From positions 2,190,001 to 2,222,000 of the forward strand of contig NZ_AP028907.1 of the NCBI RefSeq assembly GCF_036323395.1: DNA of 32,000 nucleotides, in the 5' to 3' direction. The position numbers and the translations under genes are program-made. Positions 1,627 through 22,778 of this stretch are shown piece after piece. The notes beneath the pieces were generated by a model. It made no database searches and was not told where the DNA came from. It saw only the letters and a program-made list of their open reading frames with translations. Each line of letters starts with the position of its first letter. Position 1 is the first letter of the stretch. The stretch comes from Pyrodictium abyssi (lineage in GTDB: Archaea; Thermoproteota; Thermoprotei_A; Sulfolobales; Pyrodictiaceae).

Positions 1627-2089
1627 CCGCGGCTAGGTGCCCCTTAGCGGGTGCTAGGACTATTAGGTTCCGGGTCCGGGTTGTGGGTTGTGCTCTGGAG
1701 CCTTGGACCATGCTGAGCTCCGGGAGGACGAGATGCTGGAGGTTATTGCTATACTTCTCGGGGCAATGAGAGAGTACTCGACGATGCTGGTGGTGACCCG
1801 CTGCTGTTGAAGGGGATTCCGAGGAAGATTAACCCGGAGCTAGTCTAGGCAAAACACGCCAGGTCAAGATAGGAAAAACCACGGCATCAATCACCCTCAC
1901 TCGAGCCATGGACAGAGGAGCCAAAAATACAGCCCTAGCAGAGCAATGCCCGAGGAACACTAGTACCGTCTTCCGTGTCGAGTCGAATGTCAAAAACGTT
2001 TATTTTCTTCATATGGTAAACTTGCGGAAATCATGGTATTCTGACGTAAATCCAAAAATACCTCTTTAGGTTTAGGAGGACCGCTAAGC

Positions 2090-2635
2090 CTAGTACTCAC
2101 TCGAGAGCAATACAGTTACAGTGAATCCCGTTCTCAAAGTATGATCCAGTTTAACCATTATACTATCTATCTCCTTAGGAAGTTTTGATGTATAAGCGGC
2201 AACCGTATAAACTTCTCCACACGCGTACTCATAAATATACGCTCCATCGGTTACAGTGCCCTTATCAATGTCCATTCCATTTACTTCATAGCCGCATATA
2301 CTGCCATTTTTGACTGCATTCTCTAAGCTTCTTACGTAGTTCAGTATCTCTTTAACATCAGTATATATAAATAGCATGTCGGGCTGCGGGTATTTATCTT
2401 GAAGTATGTCTTCACGATTTGACTTTGATCCAAGGTGCGTTATAGCTATCCTGAGCACTTCGACGAGCGGTTCTGGGCATGTATATTCTCCACTAGTCCA
2501 GCTGGATAGAAGGCCTAATGCTCTAGCAGCACCTATCGTTATATACCAGGTTGCGTTCCCTACGATGAGCTGTGTGTTCTCTTCATTAATTGGTTGTGCC
2601 TCTCGAAGAGCCTTATGTAGGCACTCCTCGGGCAA
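2090..2635 (-). CDS. hypothetical protein in a low-GC island, possibly 5-prime frameshifted
   Basis: 181-aa ORF with a TTG start in AT-rich DNA unlike its surroundings. The frame stays open upstream (GEATWAHAIFYR) without a start codon, and a second frame (from ATG 2742, MTYRILSSSHEINLSYSRAEAVILV) abuts it. This suggests one longer gene broken near 2680. I recognise no family. Confidence 0.45.
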   Translation of the reverse strand: MPEECLHKALREAQPINEENTQLIVGNATWYITIGAARALGLLSSWTSGEYTCPEPLVEVLRIAITHLGSKSNREDILQDKYPQPDMLFIYTDVKEILNYVRSLENAVKNGSICGYEVNGMDIDKGTVTDGAYIYEYACGEVYTVAAYTSKLPKEIDSIMVKLDHTLRTGFTVTVLLSSEY

Positions 2636-2845
2636 ACGATAAAATATTGCGTGTGCCCATGTAGCTTCACCAATATAACAGCCTCAGCGCGGGAGTAACT
2701 TAGATTTATTTCATGAGAAGAGGATAATATACGGTACGTCATCCGGCCAGTTTTTCGAGGATTAGCAATCGTCTTGGAGGCAGTTGTATAGCTTTTCACA
2801 GCTCGCCAATATTTCGAGCAGCTGGTAGGCATTATGTATCGTTCT

Positions 2846-2888
2846 GGCTAGCATGCCTTGGCGCTCATTCTGCTAGCAAATGCTAGCA
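2846..2888. repeat. cluster of GCTAGC-core palindromes
   Basis: GGCTAGCATGCC at 2846-2857 and TGCTAGCA twice (2871-2878 and 2881-2888, 10 bp apart). The cluster sits between the low-GC ORF and the vapC stop. Confidence 0.5.
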
Positions 2889-2955
2889 TTGCGAGATTCG
2901 TCATTACATATTGGACACTGGGTTACTGACTTGTTGTGATTCGCCTGGCTTGGGG

Positions 2956-3435
2956 CTAGATAATTCTCTCTAATTCTTTCTCCGGCACAGCTCTTAATAG
3001 TAGTGCTCTGGCTCCAATCCTGGATGCATGCATACTCATAGCCTCGTCGTCTGTGACTAGTATGGCGTTTCTCCTCCAGGCTAGGGCTATTATGTAGGCG
3101 TCGAAGCCCGAGCTCCCGGTCCTTATTGCTACCTCTAGTGCGTCTTCCCGGATCTCCTCCTCGAATACGATAGTGTAGTCTCTCGTGGATTTGAGGGACT
3201 CGACTATCTCTCTTGCCAGCTTCTCGCCCGCTAGCCTGGAGATTACGGCTCCCGTCTCGACTATAACGGGGTACGGTAGCAGAACCTCGTACTCCCTGTC
3301 TCTAAGCAGCCTTATGACCATTCTAGCCTTGCGGTGTGTCTCCAGCTCCCTGCGGTAGATGTTGCTGGGGAGCCAGCGGCCTGGCCTCAGTACGGACTTC
3401 ACGAGCACGCTACTATCTAGTACCACCTTTCCCAA
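2956..3435 (-). CDS. vapC: PIN-domain toxin VapC
   Basis: 159 aa with VVLDSSVLVKS at the N-terminus, VIVETGAVISRL, and GFDAYIIALAWRRNAILVTDDEAM. It overlaps the upstream antitoxin by 19 nt. Confidence 0.85.
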   Translation of the reverse strand: MGKVVLDSSVLVKSVLRPGRWLPSNIYRRELETHRKARMVIRLLRDREYEVLLPYPVIVETGAVISRLAGEKLAREIVESLKSTRDYTIVFEEEIREDALEVAIRTGSSGFDAYIIALAWRRNAILVTDDEAMSMHASRIGARALLLRAVPEKELERII

Positions 3436-3620
3436 CGCATGCGGGCCTCCCGGAGCACCTTGTCAACATCCTCTTTGGCCTCCACGCTGACTTTCTCTAT
3501 AAGTTCGGGAAATTCCTCGGGTAGGAGTTGTACTCTGAGTTCCTCGCCTTCCCTCAGCTCTAGGGGCTCGAGGGGCTTCAGCACGCCATTCTCGTAGCGG
3601 ACCCGGATTACCTTGGACAT
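3417..3620 (-). CDS. vapB: DUF104-family antitoxin (VapB-like)
   Basis: 67 aa starting MSKVIRVRYENGVLKPLEPLELREGEEL, the signature N-terminus of archaeal DUF104 antitoxins. It lies directly upstream of the PIN gene. Confidence 0.85.
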   Translation of the reverse strand: MSKVIRVRYENGVLKPLEPLELREGEELRVQLLPEEFPELIEKVSVEAKEDVDKVLREARMRWERWY

Positions 3621-3640
3621 GTACTCGTCCCTAGAGTTCT

Positions 3641-3694
3641 AGTGCTTGCTTAGCCCAATTAACCCCTGCCCTAGCAGGGCGTGTCCTAAGCACT
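3641..3694 (-). promoter_or_regulatory. nested inverted repeats upstream of vapB; candidate operator or promoter region
   Basis: AGTGCTTGCTTAG (3641-3653) pairs with CTAAGCACT (3686-3694). These enclose a perfect 6-bp hairpin CCCTGC-CCTA-GCAGGG (3664-3679) and an AT-rich TTAATT element (about 3655-3662), 20-75 nt upstream of the vapB start at 3620. Confidence 0.3.
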
Positions 3695-3784
3695 CTCTGC
3701 TCGGAGGCGGCTGATAATCGCTGCTACGGTGTGCCCTCGCTTAAGCGCCCCTATCTGGGTCTACTTGGCTTATCATGCCCCGGC

Positions 3785-5794
3785 CTATGCTGTTCGGTGG
3801 CCTATTGCTGCTGGTGCGCTTACTAGGCCTAGGTAGCCTCCGTGGACTGCGTAGCTGGAGAGTACTGCGGCGTAGTCGGCGTAGAATGGTAGTCGTTTGC
3901 GGTACTCGGTGGGGAGTTGTAGCTCTTCTGCGGTCTTGCGGTCTGTCCTCATGTATATCTTGGTGTTGGCTAGTGTGACGACGAGTGGGCTGAGGTCGCT
4001 CTCCCTGTGAGTGGATAGTAGCAGGGATATTCCGCGGCTCCTGCCTAGCCTTGCTAGGCGCTCTAGGGTTCTCCGGAGCATCTCTGCGTACTCGCCGCCG
4101 CCCCGTGGGAAGAAGAGGTGGGCTTCGTCGACGACTAGGAGTATCCGGCCGGGCCCGGTGCCTTTCTCTGCTGTTGATGCTAGGCTACGGAGGAGCTGGT
4201 AGCCTAGCAGCACTTTTACCGCTGTGGGGTCGCTCTCCGACCTTGTGGCCGCGTAGCCTAGGTCGAGCATGAGCGTATTCACGCCGAGGCTTTCCATGGC
4301 GTTGGCTAGCTCGTTGTAGTCTATCCCTGGTGCCGCCGTGTTTATCACCCCGGTGTTTGCGAGGACTCGTAGCCGGCGGAGCAGGTGCTGTAGCGTCGCC
4401 TCGGGCGCGTAGCGCTTAGCCTCCTGTATCTTGCGCTCTATGCAGTAGGCGAGCTTGGCGGGGTGTGGAATGCGGCAGCCCAGTGAGTCTACTAGCGCTG
4501 GGAGGGCTTCGCGGGCGCGCTCTGTCATGTAGGGGTCTATCTCCGATAGCTGCCTGGGATCTCTCAGCTCTATGCCCCGAGGCGCGATATACACGCTCAC
4601 TGTCTTCTCGCCGCCGCACTCCACGGTGTACCAGGCCTCGTAGACGTATGGGGCGCCGGTGTCGTGGACCACGGGGCCGTCTACGAGCCTGCATTCTCCC
4701 CCGGCGCGGCTGTACATGGCTCTGGCTATCCCGGCCAGGGTCTCGGCGTACCGTTTTGCCTCGCTCTGGGGGCTGCAGTTGTCGCCGGGGCAGGGTATGA
4801 CCACGAGGCCTCTTAGAGAGGGCCCCTTCACGGGCTCACCGGGCTCGGCCTCTACGCCGTATAGCCTGAGTATGCCCGCCCTCTTCGCGTCCACCAGGAC
4901 CCGGGGGATGTAGCCCGGGAAGAGCCCGGCTACGTAGTCCTGGTTAGCGTCGAGCACTACTATGTGGACGTCTCCTCCCTGGGTCCTTGAGACGCTGTAG
5001 AGGATGTTCTTTACGAGGCTCGTCTTACCGCTCCCCGTGGTCCCGGTCACGAGGATGTGCTTCACCATCACGCTCCAGGGGAGGGACACGGGCACCGGTG
5101 AGCCGGCTGCGAGGTACGGCCGGTCCATTATCGCTAGTGCTCCTAGCGTGACATCGCCCCGTGGGGCTATGAGCGCTGAGAGGACCGCGGGGTGCGGTAT
5201 CGCTACGGGGCTGCCCGGGTCTATGGGGAAGGATGGGGCTAGCTTCTCCGCCTCCGCGAGGATCCCGGCCAGCTCCTCTACGCTGCGTGCACGCGAGGCC
5301 TCCTCTAGCCCCTCCCGGCCCAGGTGGACTGCCAGCACGGGCCTAACATAGACCCGGATGCTGACAACGTTGCCCGCTACTGTTATCGGGCTGGGCCTGG
5401 CGAGCGGTATGCTCGTGAGAGGCTCCTGCGCACCGAGCACCCCCGGTATGCTGGAGCGCGTAGACTCGGCCACCTCGCCGAGGACCACGCTCGCCGTCTT
5501 TAGGTCTACTATGGCGTAGAAGTAGCCCGGCGAGAACACCTCAGGGTGGCTATGGGCTAGCCCTATCCAGGCCTCTGGCGCCAAATCCACGGGGACCAGG
5601 TCGGAGCCTATATCCCGGGACGCCGAGACGCGGCCTACGAGCCAGCCGTACTGCTGGAGCGTCTCGACCCCAAGCTCCGCCGCGAGGAGCCTTGCAAGCC
5701 TCTCCGCCGCCTCCACCATCTCCTCGTAGCGCTGGACTATGCGGCGGCGCTCGTTCACCAGCCTCTCGAAGCCCGCGCCCTCGCCGCCGGTCAC
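3785..5794 (-). CDS. HerA/DUF87-like (FtsK-HerA superfamily) P-loop ATPase
   Basis: 669 aa. Walker A is HILVTGTTGSGKTSLVKNIL and Walker B is RILLVVDEAHLFFP, followed by RLGRSRGISLLLSTHRESDL (HerA-type arginine/sensor region). There is a roughly 240-aa N-terminal domain before the P-loop. The GTG start overlaps the stop of the upstream ORF (GTGA, 5791-5794). Confidence 0.85.
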   Translation of the reverse strand: MTGGEGAGFERLVNERRRIVQRYEEMVEAAERLARLLAAELGVETLQQYGWLVGRVSASRDIGSDLVPVDLAPEAWIGLAHSHPEVFSPGYFYAIVDLKTASVVLGEVAESTRSSIPGVLGAQEPLTSIPLARPSPITVAGNVVSIRVYVRPVLAVHLGREGLEEASRARSVEELAGILAEAEKLAPSFPIDPGSPVAIPHPAVLSALIAPRGDVTLGALAIMDRPYLAAGSPVPVSLPWSVMVKHILVTGTTGSGKTSLVKNILYSVSRTQGGDVHIVVLDANQDYVAGLFPGYIPRVLVDAKRAGILRLYGVEAEPGEPVKGPSLRGLVVIPCPGDNCSPQSEAKRYAETLAGIARAMYSRAGGECRLVDGPVVHDTGAPYVYEAWYTVECGGEKTVSVYIAPRGIELRDPRQLSEIDPYMTERAREALPALVDSLGCRIPHPAKLAYCIERKIQEAKRYAPEATLQHLLRRLRVLANTGVINTAAPGIDYNELANAMESLGVNTLMLDLGYAATRSESDPTAVKVLLGYQLLRSLASTAEKGTGPGRILLVVDEAHLFFPRGGGEYAEMLRRTLERLARLGRSRGISLLLSTHRESDLSPLVVTLANTKIYMRTDRKTAEELQLPTEYRKRLPFYADYAAVLSSYAVHGGYLGLVSAPAAIGHRTA

Positions 5795-6231
5795 CCTGCA
5801 GCCCCCTGCTCGGCCATAGATAGGTGTGTCTCGTAGCTGAAGCCGACAGCGTGGCGTAGAGTGTTGTAGAGGAGCCTAGCACTATGTCTGGAGACTCTGC
5901 GCGCGGCATAGTCAGCCAGCCCTACCGGGATGGGGACCGGCGCGGCGTCGGGGTAGCCCATGAGCTCTACTATACCCGCCAGCAGCTCCAGGTCGGCGTC
6001 GAGCATAGCTCGGAACCTCAGCCTATCAAAGCCTACACCACCACTGCCGTCCACGGTGACGCCGCATCCCTTCACGGGGGCAGCCGGCATCTCTACCCGT
6101 AGGAGCACCCGGCCGTGGAGCGGCGACGGGACGTAGAGGTAGTAGCTCCTCTTGACCAGCACCTTCTGTGTAAACACTCTCCCGAAGCCCTGGAGCCCCA
6201 GCACATCAGCAACGCTGCGGCCGTCACGCAC
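5791..6231 (-). CDS. hypothetical 146-aa protein translationally coupled to the HerA-like gene
   Basis: ORF with a GTG start, native codon usage and a stop overlapping the HerA-like start. It sits 78 nt downstream of the NurA-like gene. I recognise no motif. Confidence 0.55.
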   Translation of the reverse strand: MRDGRSVADVLGLQGFGRVFTQKVLVKRSYYLYVPSPLHGRVLLRVEMPAAPVKGCGVTVDGSGGVGFDRLRFRAMLDADLELLAGIVELMGYPDAAPVPIPVGLADYAARRVSRHSARLLYNTLRHAVGFSYETHLSMAEQGAAG

Positions 6232-6309
6232 AGACGGCTGGTAGGCGTCCAGCCTGCTCCCGTGGCTGCCCCCGGGGCTTGTGAGTCCCCGTAGCGCTGG
6301 GCCCCATCC

Positions 6310-7209
6310 TCACCGTACTCGACCTCGGCAGGGTGGCTGCAGCGCTACGGGGACCTGGTAGCCGCCCACCCACCTCCGGGGCCCGTAGGCGCGGACAAGC
6401 ATCTCGACGAGCTGGACATCCCTCGAGGCATACAGCCCGCTTGCCTCCACCTTTCTCCTCCACTCTTTATCCGCCACTAGAGCCGAGGCGAGGAAGCGGC
6501 TCCTCTCGAGCCTCTTCACGACTCCTACTAGCCTTACGCCGTGCTGCAGCGCCTCCTCTATCAGCTTGCCCCGGTCGAGCACATTGACGAGGTAGCTTAG
6601 AGCATAGTAGGCCTTCAGCACAGTATAGGGCGAGAGGGCAGCGGGGCCGCCGCTCTGGGCTACCTGCACGAAGAGCCCCGGCGTGTTGAATACCGGGCCG
6701 TCTACGAGCACTAGGGAGCCGCCGGGGACCCAGCCTAGCAGCCATTCTAGCGCCCTATTCTCCAGCCACATCCTGTTCTCGTCGAGCATCGTCTGCCTAT
6801 TGAAGCCATTCCAGTAGTCTAGCTCGGCTATAACCCGGCAGTAGGCGGGCCTGCTTCCCCCGCTGCAGCCGGGTAGAAGCGAGGCGTAGACGCGCGGGTC
6901 AACTAGCGGCGAGTCGGCTACAAGGCCGCCGAACGACGCTGAGGCGGCGTAGCCTAGCCCTAGGCTGACCACGGGCTCCTGGCCTAGCTCGAGGCGGGGA
7001 AGGACACCGGTATCCGGGTAGGAGCCCACCAGTACTACACTGGATACGTGGGAGACGGCGACGCTGTAGACCCCTAGGAGGAGCGTTGTCGCTTCTAGCT
7101 GCTGGCTGCTGCCATCCAGCCCGTAGGCTTCTAGGCGGCCTGGCGGCTCGGGGAGCCGGGACCACACCACTCTGCCATGCGCCGCATCTTCGCGGTCCTC
7201 CTCCGTCAC
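6310..7209 (-). CDS. NurA-like nuclease
   Basis: 299 aa with LEAYGLDGSSQQLE (N-terminal DGS motif) and GGSLVLVDGPVFNTPG (second DG motif), followed by VRLVGVVKRLERS. The layout matches NurA-family nucleases. It is the first gene of the operon ending in the HerA-like ATPase. Confidence 0.6.
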   Translation of the reverse strand: MTEEDREDAAHGRVVWSRLPEPPGRLEAYGLDGSSQQLEATTLLLGVYSVAVSHVSSVVLVGSYPDTGVLPRLELGQEPVVSLGLGYAASASFGGLVADSPLVDPRVYASLLPGCSGGSRPAYCRVIAELDYWNGFNRQTMLDENRMWLENRALEWLLGWVPGGSLVLVDGPVFNTPGLFVQVAQSGGPAALSPYTVLKAYYALSYLVNVLDRGKLIEEALQHGVRLVGVVKRLERSRFLASALVADKEWRRKVEASGLYASRDVQLVEMLVRAYGPRRWVGGYQVPVALQPPCRGRVR

Positions 7210-7309
7210 GCCGGCGCCGCCTATGCTTGCTGGGCGTGGCTGGCTGGTAGAGGCTATGCGTAGCAGCTCGCCTGCGAGGCCCGCTATGTCCAGGAGTGTG
7301 GCAAGAGCT

Positions 7310-8287
7310 ATGACCGTGGTCTACTTCGTCCACAGCCTGACACAGTTCAGCCCAAGGCTCTGGCGCACACTAGGCCACCCATACGTGATGGTCTCCGCCG
7401 ACGACGCGGCCCGCGACCCCCAGAGAGCCGTCCAGCTCCTCAGAGGCCTCAACGTCATAGTGGACAGCGGCGGCTACCGGCTCATAAGCCGCGGGAGGCT
7501 GCCCAGCCCCGAGGAGGTCCTAGAGGTACAGCGGACGCTAGCCGACGAGGTGGGCGCAGAGCCCGTCGCGCTCGACACCCCGGTCCCCCACCCCCTAAGG
7601 GCGGGGGACGCCGACTTCCGCGCCGCAAACGAGGCCACGGCGAGAAACGCCCGGCTATGGGCCCGGGTATTCGGGGACCACTTCATCTACCCCCTCCACG
7701 CCCATACACCGGGCCAGCTCCGGGACGCCCTCCAGAGGCTCCGCCAAGCCGCCCCCACGGTCGAGGCCGTAGGGCTCGGAAGCCTAGCACCCCTCGCGCG
7801 CCACCGGCCAGCCCAGGCGCTGAGGCTAATAGCGTACGCGCGGAGCATGATAGACAAGCGCATCCACGTCTTCGGGGCCGGTAACAGCCTCCTCGCAGCA
7901 CTAGTGCTCCACAGGCTAGCAGACACGGCTGATACGAGTAGCCCGCTCCAGGACGCTCGCTACGGGCTAGCCCGGCACCCCAAGACACTAGCCATGACGC
8001 TCACAGCGCCCCGCCGCGCTCAGGGGAGACCGCGCGCAGAGCCACACGAGATAGCGGCGAAGTGCAGCTGCCCAGTCTGCAGGACCGAGCCAGAAGCTCT
8101 GGCAGAATGGGGCCGTAGAGGCCTCCTAGCCAGGACCGTTCACAACGCCTACCAGCTACTAGAAGTGCTAGAGGACCCCGAGAAGGCGGCAAAGCTGCTA
8201 GCGAGGCGGCCACAGCTAGCAGCTGCGCTGGCAGAGACCCGGCCTGGGAGAGGCTCCGTGGCTGCAGGGCTGCCCGGCAAGGCTTGA
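7310..8287 (+). CDS. tRNA-guanine transglycosylase (TGT) superfamily protein, short DpdA-like form
   Basis: Motifs are VIVDSGGYRLIS (TGT DSGG motif), HVFGAGNSLLAALVLHRLADTADTSSP (GxG...D.xD region), and CSCPVC followed about 22 aa later by VHNAYQLL (CxCxxC...H zinc site plus HN motif). There is no PUA or other C-terminal domain. The longest ORF starts at 7223 but would nearly abut the divergent NurA-like start, so ATG 7310 (MTVVYFVHS) is preferred. Confidence 0.7.
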   Translation: MTVVYFVHSLTQFSPRLWRTLGHPYVMVSADDAARDPQRAVQLLRGLNVIVDSGGYRLISRGRLPSPEEVLEVQRTLADEVGAEPVALDTPVPHPLRAGDADFRAANEATARNARLWARVFGDHFIYPLHAHTPGQLRDALQRLRQAAPTVEAVGLGSLAPLARHRPAQALRLIAYARSMIDKRIHVFGAGNSLLAALVLHRLADTADTSSPLQDARYGLARHPKTLAMTLTAPRRAQGRPRAEPHEIAAKCSCPVCRTEPEALAEWGRRGLLARTVHNAYQLLEVLEDPEKAAKLLARRPQLAAALAETRPGRGSVAAGLPGKA

Positions 8288-8739
8288 TAGTCTCCTCCCC
8301 GGCTTCCGTGGAGAGGGGCAGGCCTACTGTGCACGGGGAGCAGCTACGCTGCCTCGCCGGCGTGGCGTCGAGGTGGCGTCTCCGCTACCTGGTGGTCTTC
8401 GGGTCCCAGGCTAGGGGCTACGCGGGGCCTCACAGCGACTACGACGTGGCCGTCAAGGCCGGCAGGAGGCTAGCCTTCGTGGAGCGTGGCCTCCTCTACA
8501 CGGAGCTAGAGAGGTGTGTAGACGGGCGGCTCGACCTACTGTTCATAGACGACTGGGACCCCATAGCCGTGTGGGAGGCGCTAGCACACGGGAGGCTAGT
8601 CTACCACTGCGGGGCCCAGTGCCTCCGCGAATACTACGAGGACCTCGCCCGAGCCATAGACGAGGTAGCAGACCTAGAACCCATCCTGGTGCTCTTCCGG
8701 AGGGAGATGCAGCGTGCCCTCGCCGGGCCTAGTAGCTAG
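8284..8739 (+). CDS. mntA: minimal nucleotidyltransferase (MNT, MntA-like antitoxin)
   Basis: LRYLVVFGSQARGYAGPHSDYDVAV is the GSxxRG...DxD nucleotidyltransferase motif. The TTG start overlaps the TGT-like stop (TTGA), though a later GTG near 8329 is also possible. A HEPN partner follows. Confidence 0.8.
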   Translation: MIVSSPASVERGRPTVHGEQLRCLAGVASRWRLRYLVVFGSQARGYAGPHSDYDVAVKAGRRLAFVERGLLYTELERCVDGRLDLLFIDDWDPIAVWEALAHGRLVYHCGAQCLREYYEDLARAIDEVADLEPILVLFRREMQRALAGPSS

Positions 8740-9139
8740 GGTGACGCGGGCCCGGAGGAGCCTCGAGAGGCTTAGGAGGCTGGCCTCGATGCCCTGGGAG
8801 GAGTACAGCGTAGACGAGGACGCGCAGGCGCTAGCGGAGAGGCACCTCCACATACTCCTGGAGTCCATCCTCGACCTCGCAGCGTTCATCGCCGCCCGCC
8901 GCGGCCTGGCATGGAGCCCGACCTACCGCGGTGTAGTCGAGGCCCTCGTGGCCAGCGGCCTCGTGCCAGAGGAGCTAAGGAGCCTCGCCCTCTCAGCAGC
9001 CGGCATGAGGAACATACTGGTCCACGGCTACGCGGAGGTACGGCACGACATAATCTACGAAGTACTCCGACACGACCTAGACCGGCTAGAAAGACTCCTC
9101 GACACGCTGTGGAGGGAAGCAGAGAACCTAGACCCCTAG
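8714..9139 (+). CDS. hepT: HEPN-domain (DUF86, HepT-like) toxin
   Basis: 141 aa containing RNILVHGY (Rx4H HEPN RNase motif) in a helical protein. It overlaps the MNT gene by 26 nt. Confidence 0.85.
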   Translation: MPSPGLVARVTRARRSLERLRRLASMPWEEYSVDEDAQALAERHLHILLESILDLAAFIAARRGLAWSPTYRGVVEALVASGLVPEELRSLALSAAGMRNILVHGYAEVRHDIIYEVLRHDLDRLERLLDTLWREAENLDP

Positions 9140-9185
9140 CACCAACCACTCCGGCACCACATATACGCCTCCCCTAGGGCCGTGT

Positions 9186-9521
9186 ATGCCGGGGCGTTGG
9201 GCTGTGGCCTACGCTGGTGCTGCGGCTGCCGCGGCTGGGGCCTCGGCGTCTGCCCAGGCCAAGGCGTTCACCTACGGCTTCCTCGTAGTGGAGCCCAGCG
9301 AGTTTCTGAAGCTACTGGGCAGGAGCAAGGAGCCGGTGGTGGTTGTTGTCCGCCGGCGCGTCGGGATACTGAACCGGAGGGACGAGCTCGTCTACATAGC
9401 CGGGTACGGCGACTTCACGGTGCTTACCCGGTCCCCAGAGCCACTACCCCTACCCCCAGGGACCGAGGTCATAGAGGCCCGGAAGCTAGTGCTCCCGCCC
9501 GCAGTCCTGACAGCACTCTAG
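9186..9521 (+). CDS. hypothetical small protein with an Ala-rich signal-peptide-like N-terminus
   Basis: 111 aa starting MPGRWAVAYAGAAAAAAGASASAQA, followed by a mixed-composition domain with native codon usage. The alternative overlapping frame (9182..9556) is Arg/Pro/Gly-rich junk. Confidence 0.5.
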   Translation: MPGRWAVAYAGAAAAAAGASASAQAKAFTYGFLVVEPSEFLKLLGRSKEPVVVVVRRRVGILNRRDELVYIAGYGDFTVLTRSPEPLPLPPGTEVIEARKLVLPPAVLTAL

Positions 9522-9658
9522 CCCGGAGACTCGTCGTCCCAGCCGGGGTCAGTTAGACGCCCGCGGATATGCCTGGTCTCGCGTGCTGGGGGTGCTGCCT
9601 CTCTACATTGCCATGCAGTGTAGGGCCCCGTGGGCGCGCCGCCCTAGGCCATGGTCTG

Positions 9659-10255
9659 CTAGTCTCTGTGGTGGCGTGACATCTCTCTTAGTTTCTCGTG
9701 GAGCCTCTGCAGAGCCTCCTGGTGCTCTCTGGTCCACTTGCCCTGGCTCTCTAGCCTCGGCTTTACCTGCTCCTCGACTATCTCGGCTAGCTTGCCTAGG
9801 ATGGATGCGATGTCCCTTGCAGCCTCTCCGCGGTCTGGGTACTTGCTCAGCTCCCCGGAGGGGTCTGGGCCGTGGTACTGGTAGTCGTGGAGCTCGAGCG
9901 CTGTGCTGGTGAGGTGCGTGTAGTATGGCACCCCAGCGGCCTCCTCTACGAGCCTTGCTAGGGGCTTGAGCCGGCTGCTAGGCACCCGAGGTACCCCGAC
10001 CTCCTCTAGCCATTTCCTCTCCTTCTCGCCTAACATCTCTACTATCCTGTCCCTCTCTAGGGCTAGCAGCGCTGCTGTTAGCGCCCGCCACGCCTGGAAC
10101 GCCTTACCCGCAGCGTTCCTGGTGTAGCCCTCCTCGAGGAATCGTAGCGCTATCTGAGCTTCTAGGAGAGCTTCCAGTGCCCGGGCAGAGGCGTAGCCCA
10201 CTAGGTCTCGCCGGGGCTTGGGCAGGGGCTGCTCGAGTAGCGCTGCGGGGTTCAA
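9659..10255 (-). CDS. PaREP1-family (HEPN-related) protein
   Basis: 198-aa all-helical protein. LEEGYTRNAAGKAFQAWRALTAALLA and a later ALELHDYQYHG match the PaREP1 pattern (helical pair, then an aromatic/His segment) common in crenarchaeal accessory regions. Confidence 0.65.
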   Translation of the reverse strand: MNPAALLEQPLPKPRRDLVGYASARALEALLEAQIALRFLEEGYTRNAAGKAFQAWRALTAALLALERDRIVEMLGEKERKWLEEVGVPRVPSSRLKPLARLVEEAAGVPYYTHLTSTALELHDYQYHGPDPSGELSKYPDRGEAARDIASILGKLAEIVEEQVKPRLESQGKWTREHQEALQRLHEKLREMSRHHRD

Positions 10256-10274
10256 AGCCGCTGTACCCAGAGGG

Positions 10275-11306
10275 ATGGGTAGAGGGCTGCCTGGCTCCTA
10301 TAGTGTTGCCCCGCTAGAACACATGTACGTGGCGGTATCCAGGGGCTGGTTGTGGCGCTGTATTTATGTCTGGGCTAGTGTTTTGTCGCATTCTTTCCCG
10401 CCGGCTCCGCTGACGGGGGCTGCTGCCTTGGCCTTGGAGGCTGTGTTCTATGTCGCGCGGGTGGTGTTCCGGCCGCTGCGCCGGGTGGCGTTGACGGCGT
10501 GGAGCGGGGTGTACGCGGGCAGGGCTGTCTATGAGAGCCTCAACCGGGCCGGGATAGTGCTCGACCGGGGTGGATTGTTCCGGGTCTCCCCGGTCTACCC
10601 CCTGGGGTCCCGTGCCCCGGTGGGCGGGTTCCTGGCTCCAGGCGAGCGGTACTGGTTCCGGGCCGTGTTCTGGGGCGCTCCCGGCTCCGCTAGCGGGCAG
10701 CAGCTGGCTCGGGGCCTTATGGCGGGCCTTGGGCTGTGGACCCGGGAGCTTGTGGTGGAGGAGCTGAGCCTGGAGGAGAGGAGGGCCCGTCTGCCGGACC
10801 CCGGCGCGGGGGAGGGCGAGGCGGATGGCGAGCCGGTGGCGGCGCTGGTGCGGGTGCGGCACGGGCCCACATTCTACCGGTTCCACGGCGCTGTGGTCTC
10901 GTATCCTAGCCCCTGGAGGCTCGTGGCGAGCATCGCGCGGCGGCTGAGCCTGGCCACGGGGATCGACTACCGGCCACTGGCGCGCCGGCTGCAGCCGTGC
11001 CTAGAGCTGGCTGTGGACCGGACGAGGCGGGTGAGGATACGGCTCAGCCACGGTGCGGAGCCGCCGGTGTTCACCGGCGAGGCTCTCTACCACGCTGTGT
11101 GCCCCAGGGGCCTGGCCTCGGCGCTCCAGAGGCTCCTCGAGGCCGGCGTCTACACGGGTGCTGGGGCGAGCCCCGGCCTCGGCCTAGGCGAGATACACGC
11201 CGTGGACCTGGGGCCTCCGCGGCACCGGGCCCCGCCGGCCCTCGAGCCCTGGACCGAGGAGCAGGAGGAGCCCAGCGGCGCCGAAAAGGAGGCCCGGCCA
11301 GCATAG
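10275..11306 (+). CDS. Cas6/RAMP-like protein (orphan)
   Basis: A C-terminal glycine-rich loop (YTGAGASPGLGLGEIH) is preceded by strand-like segments (VRVRHGPTFYRF, VRIRLSHGAEPPVFTGEALYHAV). FRVSPVYPLG resembles the Cas6 xFxxSPL segment. The longest ORF (TTG 10218) overlaps the divergent PaREP1 gene, so ATG 10275 or 10323 is more plausible. That this is a CDS is likely; the family call is tentative. Confidence 0.45.
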   Translation: MGRGLPGSYSVAPLEHMYVAVSRGWLWRCIYVWASVLSHSFPPAPLTGAAALALEAVFYVARVVFRPLRRVALTAWSGVYAGRAVYESLNRAGIVLDRGGLFRVSPVYPLGSRAPVGGFLAPGERYWFRAVFWGAPGSASGQQLARGLMAGLGLWTRELVVEELSLEERRARLPDPGAGEGEADGEPVAALVRVRHGPTFYRFHGAVVSYPSPWRLVASIARRLSLATGIDYRPLARRLQPCLELAVDRTRRVRIRLSHGAEPPVFTGEALYHAVCPRGLASALQRLLEAGVYTGAGASPGLGLGEIHAVDLGPPRHRAPPALEPWTEEQEEPSGAEKEARPA

Positions 11307-11591
11307 GTATCTGCTTGGCCGGGGCTTGTTCTGGCGCTTTGGCGCAGGGTCTATCCCAGCCTGGTAGGCTTTGGGGCGCAGGCGTAGCTCCGCGTCCTGG
11401 ACACCAGGCTCTAGAGCGGCGCCATGGCCTGGGGCGGTGCTGCTAGGACCAGGGTCTCCGGCCCTCTCTCGGGCAGGCGGGCGAGCCTCAAGGGAGAAGC
11501 CGGGGGACACCCATATAGAGCACCCTGGCGGCACAGCATTTGATGGTACAGCTCCTTCCCGGTCCATCTCAGCTCGTGTAGTAGGGGCGGG

Positions 11592-11867
11592 GTGCTGCTG
11601 GTGACTGCTGTTGCCGTGCTAGACGCTTTGACCAGGGAGGCTAGGCTGTTGAGGGCTAAGCTAAGAGTCTACGATGCTAGGATACGCGAGCTAGAGGAGA
11701 AGCACAGAATGAGCTCTGACGAGTTCCTCGCCGGGTTCGAGAGAGGAGAGCTGGGGGACGACGAGGACTACTTCCTCTGGTGGAGCTACCTGAGGGCCAG
11801 GGCAACGATAGCTGAGAGGCTAAAGGAGCTTGAGAAGGAGATACGGAAGCTTCAGGGACTACGCTAG
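11592..11867 (+). CDS. small helical antitoxin-like protein upstream of the TumE-like gene
   Basis: 91 aa with ...SSDEFLAGFERGELGDDEDYFLWWSYLRARATIAERLKELE. Its 3-prime end overlaps the next ORF. It is similar in pattern to the 15347..15571 product. Confidence 0.6.
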   Translation: MLLVTAVAVLDALTREARLLRAKLRVYDARIRELEEKHRMSSDEFLAGFERGELGDDEDYFLWWSYLRARATIAERLKELEKEIRKLQGLR

Positions 11868-12228
11868 CTGGTTCCACGACGTTATCAGCTCGTTTGGAGA
11901 GGCCATTGTAGACTATAGCATATCCATCGAGGAGGTTACTCCCTCGGAGGGGCTCATCCGGGGAGTCATAGTGTTCCTCGACGGCTCTAGGCTCCGTTTC
12001 CTCGAGTACGTCTCTATCACCGGAGGCAACGCGGCCAGGCTCAAGTATAGGTATCACTACGAGGACCCGGATGGCAGGCTGGTCTTCCGCTACGATAATG
12101 CGCCGCACCACCCCGAGGTGGAGACGTTCCCGCACCACAAGCATCTGGGCGACGGCAGGGTAGTCGCATCCATTGCTCCCTCGATAAGGAGCGTCCTGGA
12201 GGAGATACTAGACCTCATACCGGTCTAG
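11830..12228 (+). CDS. TumE/DUF6516-like putative toxin
   Basis: 132 aa with LDGSRLRFLEY, YRYHY and FRYDNAPHHPEVETFPHHKH. This is the conserved xDNAPHH...FPHHKH signature I associate with the DUF6516/TumE family. Confidence 0.6.
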   Translation: MRRRYGSFRDYASWFHDVISSFGEAIVDYSISIEEVTPSEGLIRGVIVFLDGSRLRFLEYVSITGGNAARLKYRYHYEDPDGRLVFRYDNAPHHPEVETFPHHKHLGDGRVVASIAPSIRSVLEEILDLIPV

Positions 12229-12291
12229 CGCGGCGCTGGAGACACGGCACTGTGTATTGCCATCCGCGTTCTCTACGCCATGGAGCTGGGT

Positions 12292-13749
12292 TTAGTGTTG
12301 TGTTTCTTTCCGTAGTGGTAGTAGTGCTAGGAGGACTGCTGTGGAGACGGCTAGTGTCCAGAAGGGCGCGGGTAGGCCTAGTAGTAGCGGCTTGGCGAGT
12401 GCCTTCACCCCGTAGGCTATCGCTGCCGCGGTTGCTAGGGCGGCGCCGGAGGCCATCGAGGCGAGTGCTGCCTGCCAGCGGCCCCGTGCTAGCTCGGGCT
12501 TCGCCCACGCGAGGATGGTGGCGGGCGCGGTGGAGAGGAGTATGGCGGAGGACAGCACGGATAGCGCTACTATGAAGCCTATCCTGGCTAGTGCTAGGGC
12601 GCTAGCGGCGGCTATGAGCACTGCTACCACGGCTGCTCCGAGGAGTATCTCTGCTCGCTCGCTGGGCCTCCGGGCCCTCGGCGCGTAGAGGTCTCTTACG
12701 ACGCTGCTCGCCACGCTGAGCGCTATGGAGTCCGCTGTGGAGACGGCTGCCGCTACTATGCTGGTGAACACTATCGCCGAGAGCAGCGGCGGCGCGTGGG
12801 CTAGGAGTGTCGGCGTCACGGCGTCTCGGCGCTCTATGGGGGCTAGTAGGCCGGCTTCGCTGAGGCTCCGGGCAAGCAGCCCCGTGAGGGTGACTGCTAC
12901 TGTGTACGCGAGCCCGAACACGGCGAACCAGACCACCATGCCCCTGAGCGCCTTTGGGCTCCTGGGCATGAAGAGCCGCTGGACCGCCTGGGGGTTCGTG
13001 GCGGCGAAGAACATCCATGGTAGCGTGAAGCCCAGGAATACGCTGGGCTGCCAGAACTCGGTTAGGCCTAGCAGCCCCTTCTCGCCCAGCAGCCTGGTGG
13101 CGCCGTCGAAGCCGATGCTGCCGGCTACCCAGCCTGCTAGCCACGCTAGGAGGAGGGACGCCGAGGCTATCATCCATAGGCCCTGGAGGGCGTCGGTGAC
13201 GGCTACGCTCCATACACCGGCTACGAGCGTCCAGGCGATCATCACCGCCGCGCCGAGGGCCACGCCGTAGAGGTAGGCGGCGTCGCTGCCCGCTAGGCCC
13301 GCCACGGCCTCGGCTATGCCCTTGACCTGGGCGCTCATGTAGGGCACGAGGGCGTAGAGGTACACCACCGCTACGGCGGCTGCTAGCTTCTTGGAGCCGT
13401 AGAGGTCGCCGAGCATCTCGGCCGGGCTTATCCACCGCCTCTCCCGGGCCAGGGCCCATACCCTTGGGGCGAAGAGGGAGAGGAGGAGCATCGTGCCCAC
13501 GAAGTAGACGAGCTCGAAGCCCAGCGCCCCGGTGCCGGTCGAGTATGCGAACCCTACGAGCCCGACTATCATGAAGGCGCTGTACGTGGTAGCCGCGTAA
13601 GTCATCGCTGCCAGGAAGGTGCCTAGCCGGTAGCCCGCGACGTAGTAGTCCTGGCTACTCCTGACACCGGCCCGCCGCGCAGCCACGGCTAGCAGTGTGC
13701 CGACCAGCATGTAGAGCGCGAGCACGGCTAGGCCAAGGGACACCGCCAT
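12292..13749 (-). CDS. sodium:solute symporter (SSS) family transporter
   Basis: Polytopic membrane protein starting MAVSLGLAVLALYMLVG...SSQDYYVAGYRLGTFLAAMTYAATTYSAFMIVG (SSS N-terminal signature). The track ORF extends to 14091, but that extension is Arg/Gly-rich and overlaps the small upstream gene. ATG 13749 is chosen. Confidence 0.85.
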   Translation of the reverse strand: MAVSLGLAVLALYMLVGTLLAVAARRAGVRSSQDYYVAGYRLGTFLAAMTYAATTYSAFMIVGLVGFAYSTGTGALGFELVYFVGTMLLLSLFAPRVWALARERRWISPAEMLGDLYGSKKLAAAVAVVYLYALVPYMSAQVKGIAEAVAGLAGSDAAYLYGVALGAAVMIAWTLVAGVWSVAVTDALQGLWMIASASLLLAWLAGWVAGSIGFDGATRLLGEKGLLGLTEFWQPSVFLGFTLPWMFFAATNPQAVQRLFMPRSPKALRGMVVWFAVFGLAYTVAVTLTGLLARSLSEAGLLAPIERRDAVTPTLLAHAPPLLSAIVFTSIVAAAVSTADSIALSVASSVVRDLYAPRARRPSERAEILLGAAVVAVLIAAASALALARIGFIVALSVLSSAILLSTAPATILAWAKPELARGRWQAALASMASGAALATAAAIAYGVKALAKPLLLGLPAPFWTLAVSTAVLLALLPLRKETQH

Positions 13750-13781
13750 CCCGTCGGCCACCCCTCCCCTGCTCCCGGGGG

Positions 13782-13991
13782 CTACTGCGCGGGGGCCTCC
13801 CCCGCGGTGCGTGCTGCTAGCCTGGCAAGGGCGTAGGCCGAGTAGGCCGCCGCCACTGCTACCCAGTAGACGTAGAGGCTCCAGTCGCGCGCATCCCCTA
13901 GCACCGTGTAGGGCACCAGGTACATCGCTGCGAGGGCTGCTAGGCCAGCGGCGGCGTCGAGTAGCCAGCCCCCGGGCATGTCCCCATCCAC
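13782..13991 (-). CDS. small two-TM membrane protein accompanying the symporter
   Basis: 69 aa with two hydrophobic helices, ending 33 nt upstream of the symporter start. The arrangement resembles the small subunits often encoded ahead of SSS transporters. Confidence 0.5.
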   Translation of the reverse strand: MDGDMPGGWLLDAAAGLAALAAMYLVPYTVLGDARDWSLYVYWVAVAAAYSAYALARLAARTAGEAPAQ

Positions 13992-14139
13992 CGCGAACAG
14001 TTGTTCGGTAAACTAAACCCCTAAAAACTCGCCGGCGCCACCATCCACGAGGGCCCCAGGCAGGGGGAACCCTTAAGACCAAGGATGCCACCTCTACCTA
14101 GTGCCCTCGGTGCACAGCCACAAGCGCTAGGCTAGAACC

Positions 14140-15168
14140 ATGGGGGCCGGTAGTAGGGGCTCGCTGAGGCATAGGCTGCTAGGACTAGTCGCAGCCGAGC
14201 CCGGGCTCAGCGTATCGGAGATAGCCGCCAGGCTAGGCGCGTCCAAGAGCACGGTATCGGTGCTCGTCCGGAGGCTCGAGGCCGAGGGGCTCCTACGCCG
14301 GGTCCGCCGGGGCTCCATGGTCCTCGTCTACCCCGCCCAGGGGGCAGCCGGCGGCAGCAGCCCAGCCGGGGCGGAGGCTCGGCGGCTCCGGCTCGGCATA
14401 GTGAGGGCGGCCGAGTACCCCTTCATAGCCCACCTCGCCAAGGCGCTTAGGCACCGCGGCGTAGAGCTAGAGGTAGTGGTCTACGACAACGGGCTAGACG
14501 CGTCCTTCGACCTGGTATCGGGCAGGCTAGACCTGGCGCTCGCGCCGCTGCCAACCCAGGTCCTCTTCTACGCGCTCACGGGGCGGCTCCGCATAATAGG
14601 CGGCGGCGCCTACGGCGGAGCCTACGTCCTCGAGTCCCGGGCCGCCAGGGGCCACACCGCCTACACGACGCGCGCGTCCACGATGGAGCTCTGCCTCAAC
14701 ACCAGCGGCGTAGTGGACTACGCCGAGGCCGTGGTCTACGCCGGGGCCGGGCACGGTATAGAGGAGGCCCTGGCCAGGGGCCGGGCACGGTACGCTGCGC
14801 TCTGGGAGCCCTACGCCAGCCAGGCCCTCTCCAGGGGAGACGTCAGAGTAGTCGCGGCCTGCAGCGACCTAGGTGTGGAGAACTGCTGCACACTAGCAGC
14901 CAACCCCGACAGGCTAGGCCCGGAGCAGCGGAGCCTCATAGCCAGGCTGTACAGCGAAGCGCTCGCCGAGTACCAGCGGAGGCCAGACGCCATGCTAGAG
15001 TGGTACTCGGGCCTCACCGGTATACCCGTGGACACGCTACGCCGGGTACAGGCGAGCTACAGGATAGCCCACGAGGTGAACCCGGCCACGGCCGAGAGGA
15101 TCCTGGAGCGCGCGGGCATGAGGATGCCACGGCCAGCCCTCGTCAGGGAAGCAGTAGAGCAGCCATAA
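14140..15168 (+). CDS. winged-HTH transcriptional regulator fused to a type-2 periplasmic-binding-like sensor domain
   Basis: The N-terminus LRHRLLGLVAAEPGLSVSEIAARLGASKSTVSVLVRRLEAEGLLRR has a MarR/ArsR-like wHTH pattern. The C-terminal approximately 260 aa (LRLGIVRAAEYPFIAHL...GRLDLALAP) resembles NMT1/SsuA-type binding domains. It is divergent from the symporter operon. Confidence 0.65.
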   Translation: MGAGSRGSLRHRLLGLVAAEPGLSVSEIAARLGASKSTVSVLVRRLEAEGLLRRVRRGSMVLVYPAQGAAGGSSPAGAEARRLRLGIVRAAEYPFIAHLAKALRHRGVELEVVVYDNGLDASFDLVSGRLDLALAPLPTQVLFYALTGRLRIIGGGAYGGAYVLESRAARGHTAYTTRASTMELCLNTSGVVDYAEAVVYAGAGHGIEEALARGRARYAALWEPYASQALSRGDVRVVAACSDLGVENCCTLAANPDRLGPEQRSLIARLYSEALAEYQRRPDAMLEWYSGLTGIPVDTLRRVQASYRIAHEVNPATAERILERAGMRMPRPALVREAVEQP

Positions 15169-15346
15169 CAGCCCCCGGGCGCGTGATGCCAGGCACGGTG
15201 CTCCACCGGGCTATCCCCGTAGGAACGTGTTGGTGCTACACCCCAGGCCCTGGGTGGTTACAGTTAACAGTAAGCGGTACCCAGTATACCGTGGAAGCAG
15301 TGAATACCACGTCTTAGAGTAGCGAGGGCCACACCAGGGTCCAGCA

Positions 15347-15571
15347 TTGGCGAGAGTAGGTGCTGCCACGAAGCGGGCTACTATCCTACACCGTGTAGAG
15401 GCTGAGATAAAAGAAATTCTAAGACGCTACAATGTGGAGAGTCTCGAGGAACTCGACAAGATGATAGCTCTCGGCGAGATAGACGAGACAGACGCGCTCG
15501 ACGACCTTATACGGCTCGACCATCTGCTATGGCTTCGAGACCAGCTTCGGGGCAAGAGAAGCCGTTCCTAG
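15347..15571 (+). CDS. small helical antitoxin-like protein (solitary)
   Basis: 74 aa with ESLEELDKMIALGEIDETDALDDLIRLDHLLWLRDQL. It shows the same acidic GE(L/I)xD...W...L pattern as the 11592..11867 product. Confidence 0.5.
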   Translation: MARVGAATKRATILHRVEAEIKEILRRYNVESLEELDKMIALGEIDETDALDDLIRLDHLLWLRDQLRGKRSRS

Positions 15572-15600
15572 CCGGTCCAAGACTGCCAGGGGCCCGGGGA

Positions 15601-16081
15601 TTAGAGGGCACAGTCCCAGCCATCCCGGGGAGGGCTTCCTGTGAGCTTTCTGCGCACAAAGGCGAAGACCGTGTCGAGTAGCTCCAGGAGAGCATCGATC
15701 CGGTATCCACCTACGCCTTCGGGAGGAGTAAAGTCACATACATCATGGTCTCTACAGTGATGGAAATGATGCGGAAACGTGGAGACACGCTGCCGATGAG
15801 CTTCATGCGGGCTATTATCCCATCGATAGATACACCCATCGACGCCTCGACGGTCCAGTGTATCGCGTACCTTCCCTTCATCCTCTTGGAGAGCCAGACG
15901 TACATTGTACTTCCATCACGTAGCCTTATCTCTAGCCTCTCTGGCAGCGTTGTCTGACAGACTCCACCACATCGCCATAGCGTTCCCCGACTAGTCTTTC
16001 TAGCTTTACAAGCGCCTCTATTGCCGCGTATCCTGTATCGCTGCCCTCTGTGCCCGGGTTGTTAGACACTTCCTCCCCCAT
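15601..16081 (-). pseudogene. TumE/DUF6516-like gene with two frameshifts
   Basis: Three consecutive minus-strand frames read: MGEEVSNNPGTEGSDTGYAAIEALVKLERLVGERYGDVVESVRQ / TLPERLEIRLRDGSTMYVWLSKRMKGRYAIHW / LDRRGVDGCIYRWDNSPHEAHRQRVSTFPHHFHH...IDALLELLDTVFAFV, stop at 15601. The order of motifs (DGS, YxxHW, RWDNxPH, FPHHxH) matches the intact copy at 11830..12228. Track ORF 15711..15905 is the middle piece. Confidence 0.6.
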
Positions 16082-16117
16082 ACTCTGCGTTATTATCTAG
16101 CCGGTTTCGGCATAGCC

Positions 16118-16124
16118 TATATAA
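16118..16124 (-). promoter_or_regulatory. TATA-box-like element upstream of the decayed TumE-like gene
   Basis: TTATATA on the minus strand lies about 40 nt upstream of the ATG at 16081, a spacing compatible with an archaeal TATA/TSS/short leader. Confidence 0.35.
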
Positions 16125-16318
16125 GGCGTAGGACCTCTTGAGATTTGTAGCTGGAATTGGAGGTTTTCCTTACGCTCGGCTCCATGATTTGCCATATACA
16201 CGGTACTACTGGGGCTTGAGCCGTCGATAACCCTGTTATCGTAGTATTGAAAAGGGGACCTCTGGTGGGCCTGGTCCCCAGGGGTAGCAGGCTCTTTCAC
16301 GGGGGTGTATGATAGGCC

Positions 16319-20297: not shown

Positions 20298-20534
20298 GTG
20301 CCGAGAAACACCTACAACTACGAAATTCTAGAGTACTTCCCTATCGATGAAGGACGCTACGCTCTATACATGTTCGTGGACACCATGAATAACATGAGTG
20401 CCACCTACCAAATAACTATACAACAACGAGCCTACACCAGGGCAGGCCTAATCTTCCTGATGACTCTCGCTAAGATAAACGGGTCAGGAAGACCGCTGAA
20501 CTCAGCATTGTACGGGAGACTCAACTCGCCTTGA
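20298..20534 (+). CDS. hypothetical protein (low-GC island)
   Basis: 78-aa ORF with a GTG start and AT-rich composition. No motif recognised. Confidence 0.3.
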   Translation: MPRNTYNYEILEYFPIDEGRYALYMFVDTMNNMSATYQITIQQRAYTRAGLIFLMTLAKINGSGRPLNSALYGRLNSP

Positions 20535-22757: not shown

Positions 22758-22778
22758 ACCAAGCCACCGCCCCTGCTA

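Follow-up and report, generated by a model that had tools for sequence, protein, structure and literature searches.

Paralogues of the HerA ATPase and the NurA nuclease have been described beside CRISPR–Cas loci, as nurA-csm6-herA in Pyrobaculum (Bernick 2012, PMC3396285), as 'Cas HerA/Cas NurA' specific to types I and III (Vestergaard 2014, PMC3973734) and as the type III co-evolving clusters 57/58 (Shah 2019, PMC6546367), and a Csa3a-controlled NurA–HerA has been put forward as the source of prespacer fragments for type I-A adaptation (PMC5587795). Enzymes of the TGT superfamily belong to two further systems: the bacterial Dpd system, made up of DpdA, DpdB and DpdC with DpdD–K, and the BREX-related capture (BRC) system reported in 2026, which comprises HerA/FtsK, PglZ, DUF6079, a STAND NTPase, DUF4007, GNAT and TGT proteins (PMC12839542). 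Here we analyse a 32,000-nucleotide stretch of the Pyrodictium abyssi genome (hereafter the window) in which a herA-like gene, a long-form nurA-like gene and a TGT-fold gene (tgt) lie side by side. We favour, with moderate confidence, the reading that a three-gene accessory of type I-A CRISPR–Cas loci in Pyrodictiaceae and related Desulfurococcales is present here as a decaying copy. The HerA/NurA pair appears to be a known CRISPR companion and its TGT-like partner appears to be undescribed: PMC3396285, PMC3973734 and PMC6546367 make no mention of one, and a full-text literature search returned no description of a CRISPR-linked TGT. An earlier note on this DNA had named no described system with this gene set, which does not apply to the ATPase and the nuclease, given the published CRISPR-associated HerA/NurA pairs, and still appears to apply to the TGT partner. 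The three genes of the window are as follows.

3785–5794, minus strand: herA-like ATPase gene, 669 amino acids (aa), apparently intact open reading frame
5791–7299, minus strand: nurA-like gene, long form, disrupted; a single gene of 485–547 aa in relatives
7310–8287, plus strand: TGT-fold gene (DpdA-like, resembling the catalytic domain of ArcTGT), 325 aa; open reading frame intact, native promoter deleted

The closest described counterpart is the CRISPR-associated HerA/NurA pair. As there, the two genes are adjacent, separate from mre11–rad50 and, in most orthologous loci, found near cas cassettes or arrays of Thermoproteota, and the top PADLOC models for the window proteins were built from those very clusters. 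The match to clusters 57/58, compared through these models, is partial: the HerA-like protein reaches PDLC01055 ('HerA, Type III coevolved') at E 1.7e-31 and 107 bits over part of its length, and the NurA-like protein reaches PDLC01056 at E 1e-4 to 9e-6 (19–23 bits). A role in adaptation, proposed for the known pair, is one that we propose here too. Unlike the Pyrobaculum pair, which is accompanied by csm6 and is mainly a type III companion, the pair described here has a TGT-fold third partner and type I-A neighbours, and its NurA is long, at about 500–550 aa.

The likeness to Dpd lies in a TGT-superfamily enzyme with catalytic aspartates and a zinc site, in two relatives fused to a YaaA/DpdC-like domain, and in the pairing with ATP-driven DNA-processing proteins. 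By contrast with Dpd, there is neither DpdB (a ParB-like ATPase) nor any DpdD–K gene here, DpdC (PF03883) is absent from the window, the DpdA models are not reached, the presumed effector is HerA–NurA, and the host is an archaeon with a CRISPR context. BRC shares the co-occurrence of a HerA/FtsK-type translocase with a TGT-family enzyme in a predicted defence locus; however, PglZ, DUF6079/BrxC-like, STAND, DUF4007 and GNAT proteins are missing from the window and from the neighbourhoods of its relatives, the nuclease here is NurA, and cas genes surround the trio.

Conservation of the trio and its CRISPR–Cas setting

Pattern scans of species-representative genomes and metagenome contigs yielded one locus each, with gene contexts obtained mostly through exact-protein look-ups. 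The herA-like, long nurA-like and tgt-like genes are adjacent in all nine of the other lineages that have a full-length tgt and enough flanking DNA, spread over three orders (L001/L002, L003, L004, L005, L009/L010, L012, L013, L014 and L015; L001 is P. delaneyi and L003 is Pyrofollis japonicus). Their order varies, being divergent in L001/L002, L003, L004, L005, L012, L013 and L014, a co-directional nurA-herA-tgt operon in L009/L010 and convergent in L015. These comparisons show that the three genes travel as one unit. The linkage of the TGT-like gene to the ATPase and nuclease genes, as the earlier note had it, is thereby borne out by the neighbourhoods, and the proposed set of four or five genes shrinks to three, the additional 146-aa protein being a fragment of the nuclease (see below).

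In six of ten lineages (L001/L002, L003, L005, L009, L013 and L014) the trio lies among type I-A cas genes or arrays. In P. delaneyi it sits between csa5-cas7-cas5-(cas8a)-cas3'-cas3'' on one side and a 53-repeat array with cas6 on the other, and in Pyrofollis japonicus between one array and cas1-csa1 with another array; the two species share the repeat core CTTACAATTCTCTTTTGAGTT (L001 11075–14800; L003 5150–6068 and 12875–13931). The L005 trio adjoins cas4, csa3, csa5, cas7 and cas5. In L009, csa1-cas1-cas2-cas4 diverges from a tight nurA-herA-tgt-cas6 operon with gaps of 7–49 bp, in L014 csa1/cas1 directly adjoin tgt, and in L013 csa1/cas1 lie on the same contig about 3 kb beyond herA.

The P. 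abyssi site itself lacks the cas cassette and array and has cas6 alone:

10428–11306, plus strand: solitary cas6, Pfam CRISPR_Cas6 29.2 bits (cut-off 25)

This gene, about 2 kb from the module, is 79% identical at the amino acid level to the P. delaneyi cas6 and is inverted in comparison with its locus. Ten other Cas proteins, used as tblastn queries, had no match in the 32-kb window, and neither tandem- and direct-repeat searches nor the P. delaneyi repeat allowed three mismatches revealed CRISPR repeats there. The whole P. abyssi lineage (the window, L006 and L012) retains only cas6. In the place of the array and the type I-A cassette, the window has MNT-HepT, PaREP1, an SSF transporter, MarR and PIN/AF2212 toxin–antitoxin modules. 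The locus had been described in the earlier note as standing alone, which holds with respect to mre11 and rad50 and fails with respect to CRISPR–Cas, given the cas6 gene and the orthologous loci within type I-A systems.

Two further loci carry a HerA/NurA pair of the same subfamily within type I-A loci and have no tgt nearby: L007, from Hyperthermus butylicus, and L008, from a metagenome-assembled genome. The L005 and L007 pairs have csa3 genes close by, and the L008 locus also encodes csa3. In H. butylicus (L007 4754–9924), a frameshift splits nurA into pieces of 355 and 152 aa at the 'AIGP' region where the window nurA is broken too. Next to csa3 fragments, 1.6 kb upstream, lies the gene of a 660-aa PAPS reductase with matches to BrxP (2.9e-45), SspD and DndC, which could be a different partner for DNA modification or be there by coincidence. 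In L008, nurA-herA is intact and no tgt lies on the 21.8-kb locus; two small open reading frames (174 and 215 aa; 7112–8277), with no Pfam or PADLOC match, occupy the usual tgt position upstream of nurA.

We also considered that the window might hold an ordinary HerA–NurA pair for break repair beside a tRNA archaeosine TGT. The family names are identical, and the canonical herA-mre11-rad50-nurA genes resemble those of the window in combining a HerA-family ATPase with a NurA-family nuclease, in overlapping genes and in the mechanical principle expected of them. The 669-aa HerA-like protein has Pfam DUF87, FtsK_SpoIIIE and HerA_C matches and intact Walker A (GTTGSGKT) and Walker B (LLVVDEAH) motifs, and shares 100% identity with a Pyrodictium abyssi entry and 87% with P. 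delaneyi Pyrde_0302. However, it scores 29 bits against the NCBIfam equivalog HerA_Thermprot (cut-off 800) and 41 bits against helicase_HerA (cut-off 970), far below either threshold, and its TGT-like neighbour reaches 27 of the 350 bits required by TgtA. It is about 170 aa longer than canonical HerA, the NurA is of the long form, neither mre11 nor rad50 was found in the 32-kb window, and the distribution is narrow (17 TGT-like clusters and about 22 close HerA relatives). The nurA of the window is broken, and the canonical HerA–NurA genes are reported to be essential in Sulfolobus. Judged by these scores and by its surroundings, the pair is not the housekeeping mre11–rad50-linked one, in agreement with the earlier note, and we regard the ordinary repair explanation as hardly credible.

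The TGT-like protein

We place the start of tgt at 7310 because the family alignment begins at MTVVYFVH; a 354-aa open reading frame from 7223 was rejected, its extension being antisense nurA sequence produced by a deletion. The product belongs to a small family: a word-indexed search gave 18 proteins, and among 1.84 billion representatives 17 clusters reached E ≤ 1e-30. The nearest relatives outside the family are unclassified proteins of 350–395 aa that consist solely of a catalytic domain like that of ArcTGT. Neither the PHROGs library nor tblastn against 50,697 phage and virus records gave a match to the window protein.

The Pfam TGT model gave 25.9 bits, slightly under its cut-off of 26.3, and the family profile matched the ArcTGT of P. 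horikoshii (1iq8) at 2.7e-7 over residues 89–323 of 582. D52, D208, C252, C254, C257 and H278 are invariant in the 18 sequences and align to ArcTGT D95, D249, C279, C281, C284 and H307. Consistent with this, the AlphaFold2 model (pLDDT 89) is a TIM barrel, for which Foldseek gave TM-scores of 0.65–0.72 to TGT and ArcTGT structures (0.71 to 1iq8). In alignment and model, the protein keeps both catalytic aspartates and the Cys-x-Cys-x2-Cys...His zinc site on the barrel. The comparison of predicted structures that the earlier note had proposed thus upholds the TGT assignment; for the nuclease, the model found no NurA match (see below).

The protein lies far under the NCBIfam equivalog cut-offs for TgtA, Tgt and DpdA. 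With its 325 aa it corresponds to the catalytic domain only, the C-terminal tRNA-binding and PUA domains being absent, and unlike the 582-aa ArcTGT its family has a narrow and patchy distribution. Because its TIGR00432 (TgtA) score is 26.8 bits where 350 are required and it lacks the C-terminal tRNA-binding domains, the protein is, on sequence criteria, not the tRNA archaeosine enzyme, as the earlier note had also held.

In two loci, L004 (9995–11440) and L015 (2246–3673; P0017), the TGT domain is fused to DUF6884, and this C-terminal domain matches PADLOC DpdC and PDC-M57A. Such fusions occur only in these two loci, which have no cas genes in the available DNA. DUF6884 is a YaaA-like fold that binds DNA and flips bases (PMC11701544), and DpdC is a member of PF03883, the YaaA family (PMC12839542). 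We favour DNA as the substrate because the protein has the catalytic domain only, because of the DpdC-like fusions and because its constant partners are DNA enzymes; the TGT-like protein is probably a DpdA-like DNA base exchanger.

An enzyme directed at RNA, modifying tRNA or the crRNA and repeat transcript and merely co-regulated with HerA–NurA, would explain why the top sequence match is the catalytic domain of a tRNA ArcTGT and why tgt adjoins cas6, the gene of the crRNA-processing enzyme, in L009. We consider this very improbable in view of the missing tRNA-binding and PUA domains in a protein little more than half the length of ArcTGT, the distance from the TgtA cut-off, the DNA-binding YaaA/DpdC-like fusion partner and the association with DNA enzymes.

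Lesions in the P. abyssi copy

The open reading frames listed in the earlier note are all present in the DNA, and the GTG start of herA overlaps the preceding stop codon (GTGA) as described there; herA and nurA also abut in P. delaneyi, as judged from gene coordinates. What had been taken as a NurA-like gene followed by a separate gene of unknown function is, by contrast, one disrupted gene with the following features.

6310–7209, minus strand: NurA-like open reading frame (N-terminal part), Pfam NurA 29.8 bits (cut-off 21)
5791–6231, minus strand: 146-aa open reading frame, a C-terminal nurA fragment in frame with 6310–7209
6300–6339: inverted segment of 40 bp inside nurA, creating an in-frame TGA at 6310–6312
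6287–6299: inverted-repeat arm CAGCGCTACGGGG (minus-strand reading), perfect 13-bp repeat
6340–6352: inverted-repeat arm CCCCGTAGCGCTG (minus-strand reading), perfect 13-bp repeat
7145–7155: junction left by an in-frame nurA deletion of 51 bp, at 11-bp imperfect direct repeats CTCCCCG(G/A)GCC
7289–7299: junction left by the loss of about 70 bp between imperfect direct repeats of 11 bp, ACACTCCT(G/A)GA

The 146-aa open reading frame is the C-terminal third of nurA because it shares the frame of the upstream piece (7209 − 6231 = 978 = 3 × 326), with a lone TGA between them, and because it aligns to the single genes of relatives: it corresponds to residues 380–523, approximately, of intact NurA-like orthologues, and one gene of 485–547 aa spans both pieces in P. 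delaneyi, Pyrofollis japonicus and several metagenomic relatives. An intact 523-aa protein, P0204, is encoded on the metagenomic locus L012, which is collinear with window positions 3595–17481, and is 93% identical to the repaired window reading.

The stop codon is explained by an inversion. About 90 bp around it have no DNA similarity to P. delaneyi as oriented in the window, and the reverse complement of the 40-bp segment encodes GPILTVLDLGRVA, which matches L001, P0204 and L012 and removes the stop. With the segment flipped back, the reading becomes YQVPVALGPILTVLDLGRVAAALRG, identical to P0204 across that stretch. In L012, where the segment is not inverted, the arm equivalent to 6287–6299 carries one mismatch (CAGCACTACGGGG), and the event fits a quasi-palindrome template-switch mutation that also perfected the palindrome. 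Two compensating frameshifts were rejected as a cause of the stop: the other two frames have no similarity, and the inversion accounts for it exactly.

Two deletions accompany the inversion. The 51-bp deletion removed 17 codons that are present in P0204, P0203 and P0202. The deletion of about 70 bp took the TTG start of nurA and the divergent nurA/tgt spacer with the TATA-like boxes of both genes, so that the window joins ACACTCCTGGA straight to CATAGCG; in L012, L006 and L001 the spacer is still there, and GGAGATATAAGG precedes the tgt ATG by about 30 nt. The divergent gap of about 100 bp that the earlier note had described is correct as a spacing (7210–7309), although what fills it is mostly nurA coding sequence without its start, brought there by the loss of the promoter spacer. 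All three lesions are located at short repeats.

Repaired nurA gave a dN/dS of 0.16 against P. delaneyi, close to those of herA (0.17), tgt (0.22) and the flanking transporter genes; nurA was thus under purifying selection until it was damaged, and the damage is recent. The window nurA is a probable pseudogene. With a disrupted nuclease gene and neither promoter left, the window copy of the trio is unlikely to work. For annotation, the lesson is that an 'unknown 146-aa protein' was an artefact of a 40-bp inversion and that what the window carries is a pseudogenised remnant of the locus.

As to the nuclease family, Pfam NurA (PF09376) covers residues 89–481 of the 547-aa L004 orthologue at 29.1 bits, and the motifs DGS, DENR..E, VDGP, KRSYYL and LAD..AR are kept across relatives. 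The AlphaFold2 model of the NurA-like protein was poor (7 sequences, pLDDT 59), and neither Foldseek against the PDB (nothing at E < 0.08) nor a profile search of PDB sequences with the NurA-like family returned a NurA match.

Downstream of tgt lies a type VII MNT-HepT toxin–antitoxin pair, identified as such by its domain matches:

8284–8739, plus strand: MNT-type nucleotidyltransferase antitoxin; Pfam Polbeta 41.8 bits (cut-off 26.9) and NTP_transf_2, NCBIfam MntA 49 (cut-off 60)
8714–9139, plus strand: HepT toxin; Pfam HepT-like 1.1e-21, NCBIfam HepT_toxin 89 bits (cut-off 60)

The earlier note had counted this pair among the components of the module. It is an unrelated toxin–antitoxin insertion outside the module, because it is absent beside the trio in the distant orthologous loci L001, L003, L004, L005 and L014 and is frameshifted in L006, a metagenomic contig 95% identical to the window, where several frameshifts lie in the equivalent of window positions 8284–9139 (L006 ~1100–1950). 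Integrity is thus reversed between the two genetic elements, MNT-HepT being intact in the window and broken in L006, whereas nurA is broken in the window and intact in L012. Other HEPN/nucleotidyltransferase pairs, of other Pfam families and order, lie beside or near the trio in the unrelated genomes of L013 (11282–12029) and L009 (14399–15160), as expected for defence islands of hyperthermophiles. Elsewhere in the window, the G+C content drops to 0.42–0.51 at 2001–3000, 20001–23000 and 26001–27000, against about 0.65 in the remainder; these stretches may be inserted foreign DNA, and the open reading frames at 2090–2635, 2560–2832 and 21372–22208 within them have no Pfam match. Neither tRNA genes nor Rfam families were found in the window.

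Proposed roles of the trio

By analogy with characterised homologues, a HerA hexamer would thread linear double-stranded DNA into the NurA nuclease, resecting or degrading it. The TGT-like enzyme would replace DNA guanine with a 7-deazaguanine base, the simplest candidate being the preQ0 that the host makes in its archaeosine pathway; we suggest this exchange because of the fold, the conserved catalytic residues, the lack of tRNA-binding domains and the DpdC-like fusions. More speculatively, HerA–NurA would probably feed DNA fragments to the spacer-acquisition proteins encoded by the neighbouring csa1-cas1-cas2-cas4, and the base mark could tell both HerA–NurA and the acquisition machinery which DNA is self, such that invader DNA would be degraded and sampled and host DNA spared.

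Several observations weigh against the reading of the trio as a type I-A accessory that modifies DNA. The sample comprises about ten lineages of a narrow clade. HerA/NurA pairs of the same subfamily occur without a nearby tgt in L007 and L008. No cas gene was found in the available DNA of L004 and L015, whose flanks are housekeeping genes (CysRS, ThiF, TruD and PTH2), and in L012, within the P. abyssi lineage, cas6 is the sole cas gene near an intact trio; cas genes therefore need not adjoin the trio. The NurA assignment comes from low-scoring Pfam matches and motifs, and the structural model did not confirm the fold. The TGT-like protein of the window has no match to the NCBIfam DpdA model NF041059 at E ≤ 0.1 and no PADLOC model, its Foldseek scores are alike for tRNA TGTs, ArcTGT and viral DpdA-like proteins and thus do not discriminate among them, and the choice of DNA over RNA as the substrate is a judgement, read from sequence, of which is more likely.

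Some of these observations are those expected of an autonomous system akin to restriction–modification, in which tgt would mark host DNA, HerA–NurA would destroy unmarked DNA and the position beside CRISPR–Cas would reflect the clustering of defence islands. Such a system would accommodate the intact trios that lack adjacent cas genes or have cas6 alone, and the DpdA and DpdC-like fusions fall exactly in the cas-free L004 and L015. H. butylicus, with no tgt at the locus, a broken nurA and a BrxP/DndC-like PAPS reductase close by, hints at modification partners that can be swapped. In the window, a single deletion disabled both the tgt and the nurA start, the outcome expected if the nuclease were harmful where the mark is missing, and in these cases the integrity of the nuclease is lost where tgt is lost or silenced. 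Translocases of the HerA/FtsK type paired with a modification enzyme also have precedents in DndFGH and in BRC with its TGT (PMC12839542). Yet cas genes or arrays flank the trio in six of the ten lineages, the trio shares an operon with cas6 in L009, and HerA/NurA paralogues have been reported to be linked to, and to co-evolve with, CRISPR–Cas (PMC3973734, PMC6546367). Moreover, L008 has an intact nurA-herA with no tgt on its 21.8 kb, and the tgt-less L007 and L008 therefore weaken the case for a strict restriction–modification dependence. An autonomous system of this kind is, in our view, a serious rival although the less likely reading. The scheme of modification plus degradation put forward in the earlier note remains plausible as an idea.

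A helper that counters viral modification was considered as well, in which tgt would remove or swap 7-deazaguanines in viral DNA and so unmask it for Cascade/Cas3, for spacer capture or for degradation by HerA–NurA. Known TGT-family enzymes install deazaguanines and do not remove them, and the DpdC-like fusion points to an installed base being matured rather than removed, which makes this helper role quite improbable to us. In its favour, genes of the 7-deazaguanine pathway occur in viruses of hyperthermophilic Thermoproteota (12 Ligamenvirales and 2 Bicaudaviridae; PMC6884629), a TGT-like protein of a Sulfolobales rod-shaped virus matches structurally, glycosylases of bacterial defence systems attack 7-deazaguanine DNA (bioRxiv 10.1101/2025.10.29.685425), and the neighbouring adaptation genes in L003, L009, L013 and L014 would fit such a function.

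We return to the accessory of type I-A loci as the favoured reading. The trio bears on the questions of how type I-A systems obtain their prespacers and how they avoid sampling their own chromosome. For the prespacer step, HerA–NurA has been suggested to be what RecBCD is in bacteria, and the TGT-like partner is a testable candidate for a chemical mark of self and non-self or for a counter to viral DNA modification. That a DpdA-like DNA guanine transglycosylase is a genuine accessory of hyperthermophile CRISPR–Cas systems, writing a self mark or erasing viral deazaguanines, is a tentative proposal that we think rather unlikely to hold in full. If true, a self mark would steer HerA–NurA and Cas1–Cas2–Cas4–Csa1 off host DNA, or viral deazaguanines would be erased, opening protospacers to capture and targeting. 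In both cases adaptive immunity would be tied directly to the hypermodification of DNA bases, and 7-deazaguanine DNA chemistry would extend to the cellular genomes of Thermoproteota.

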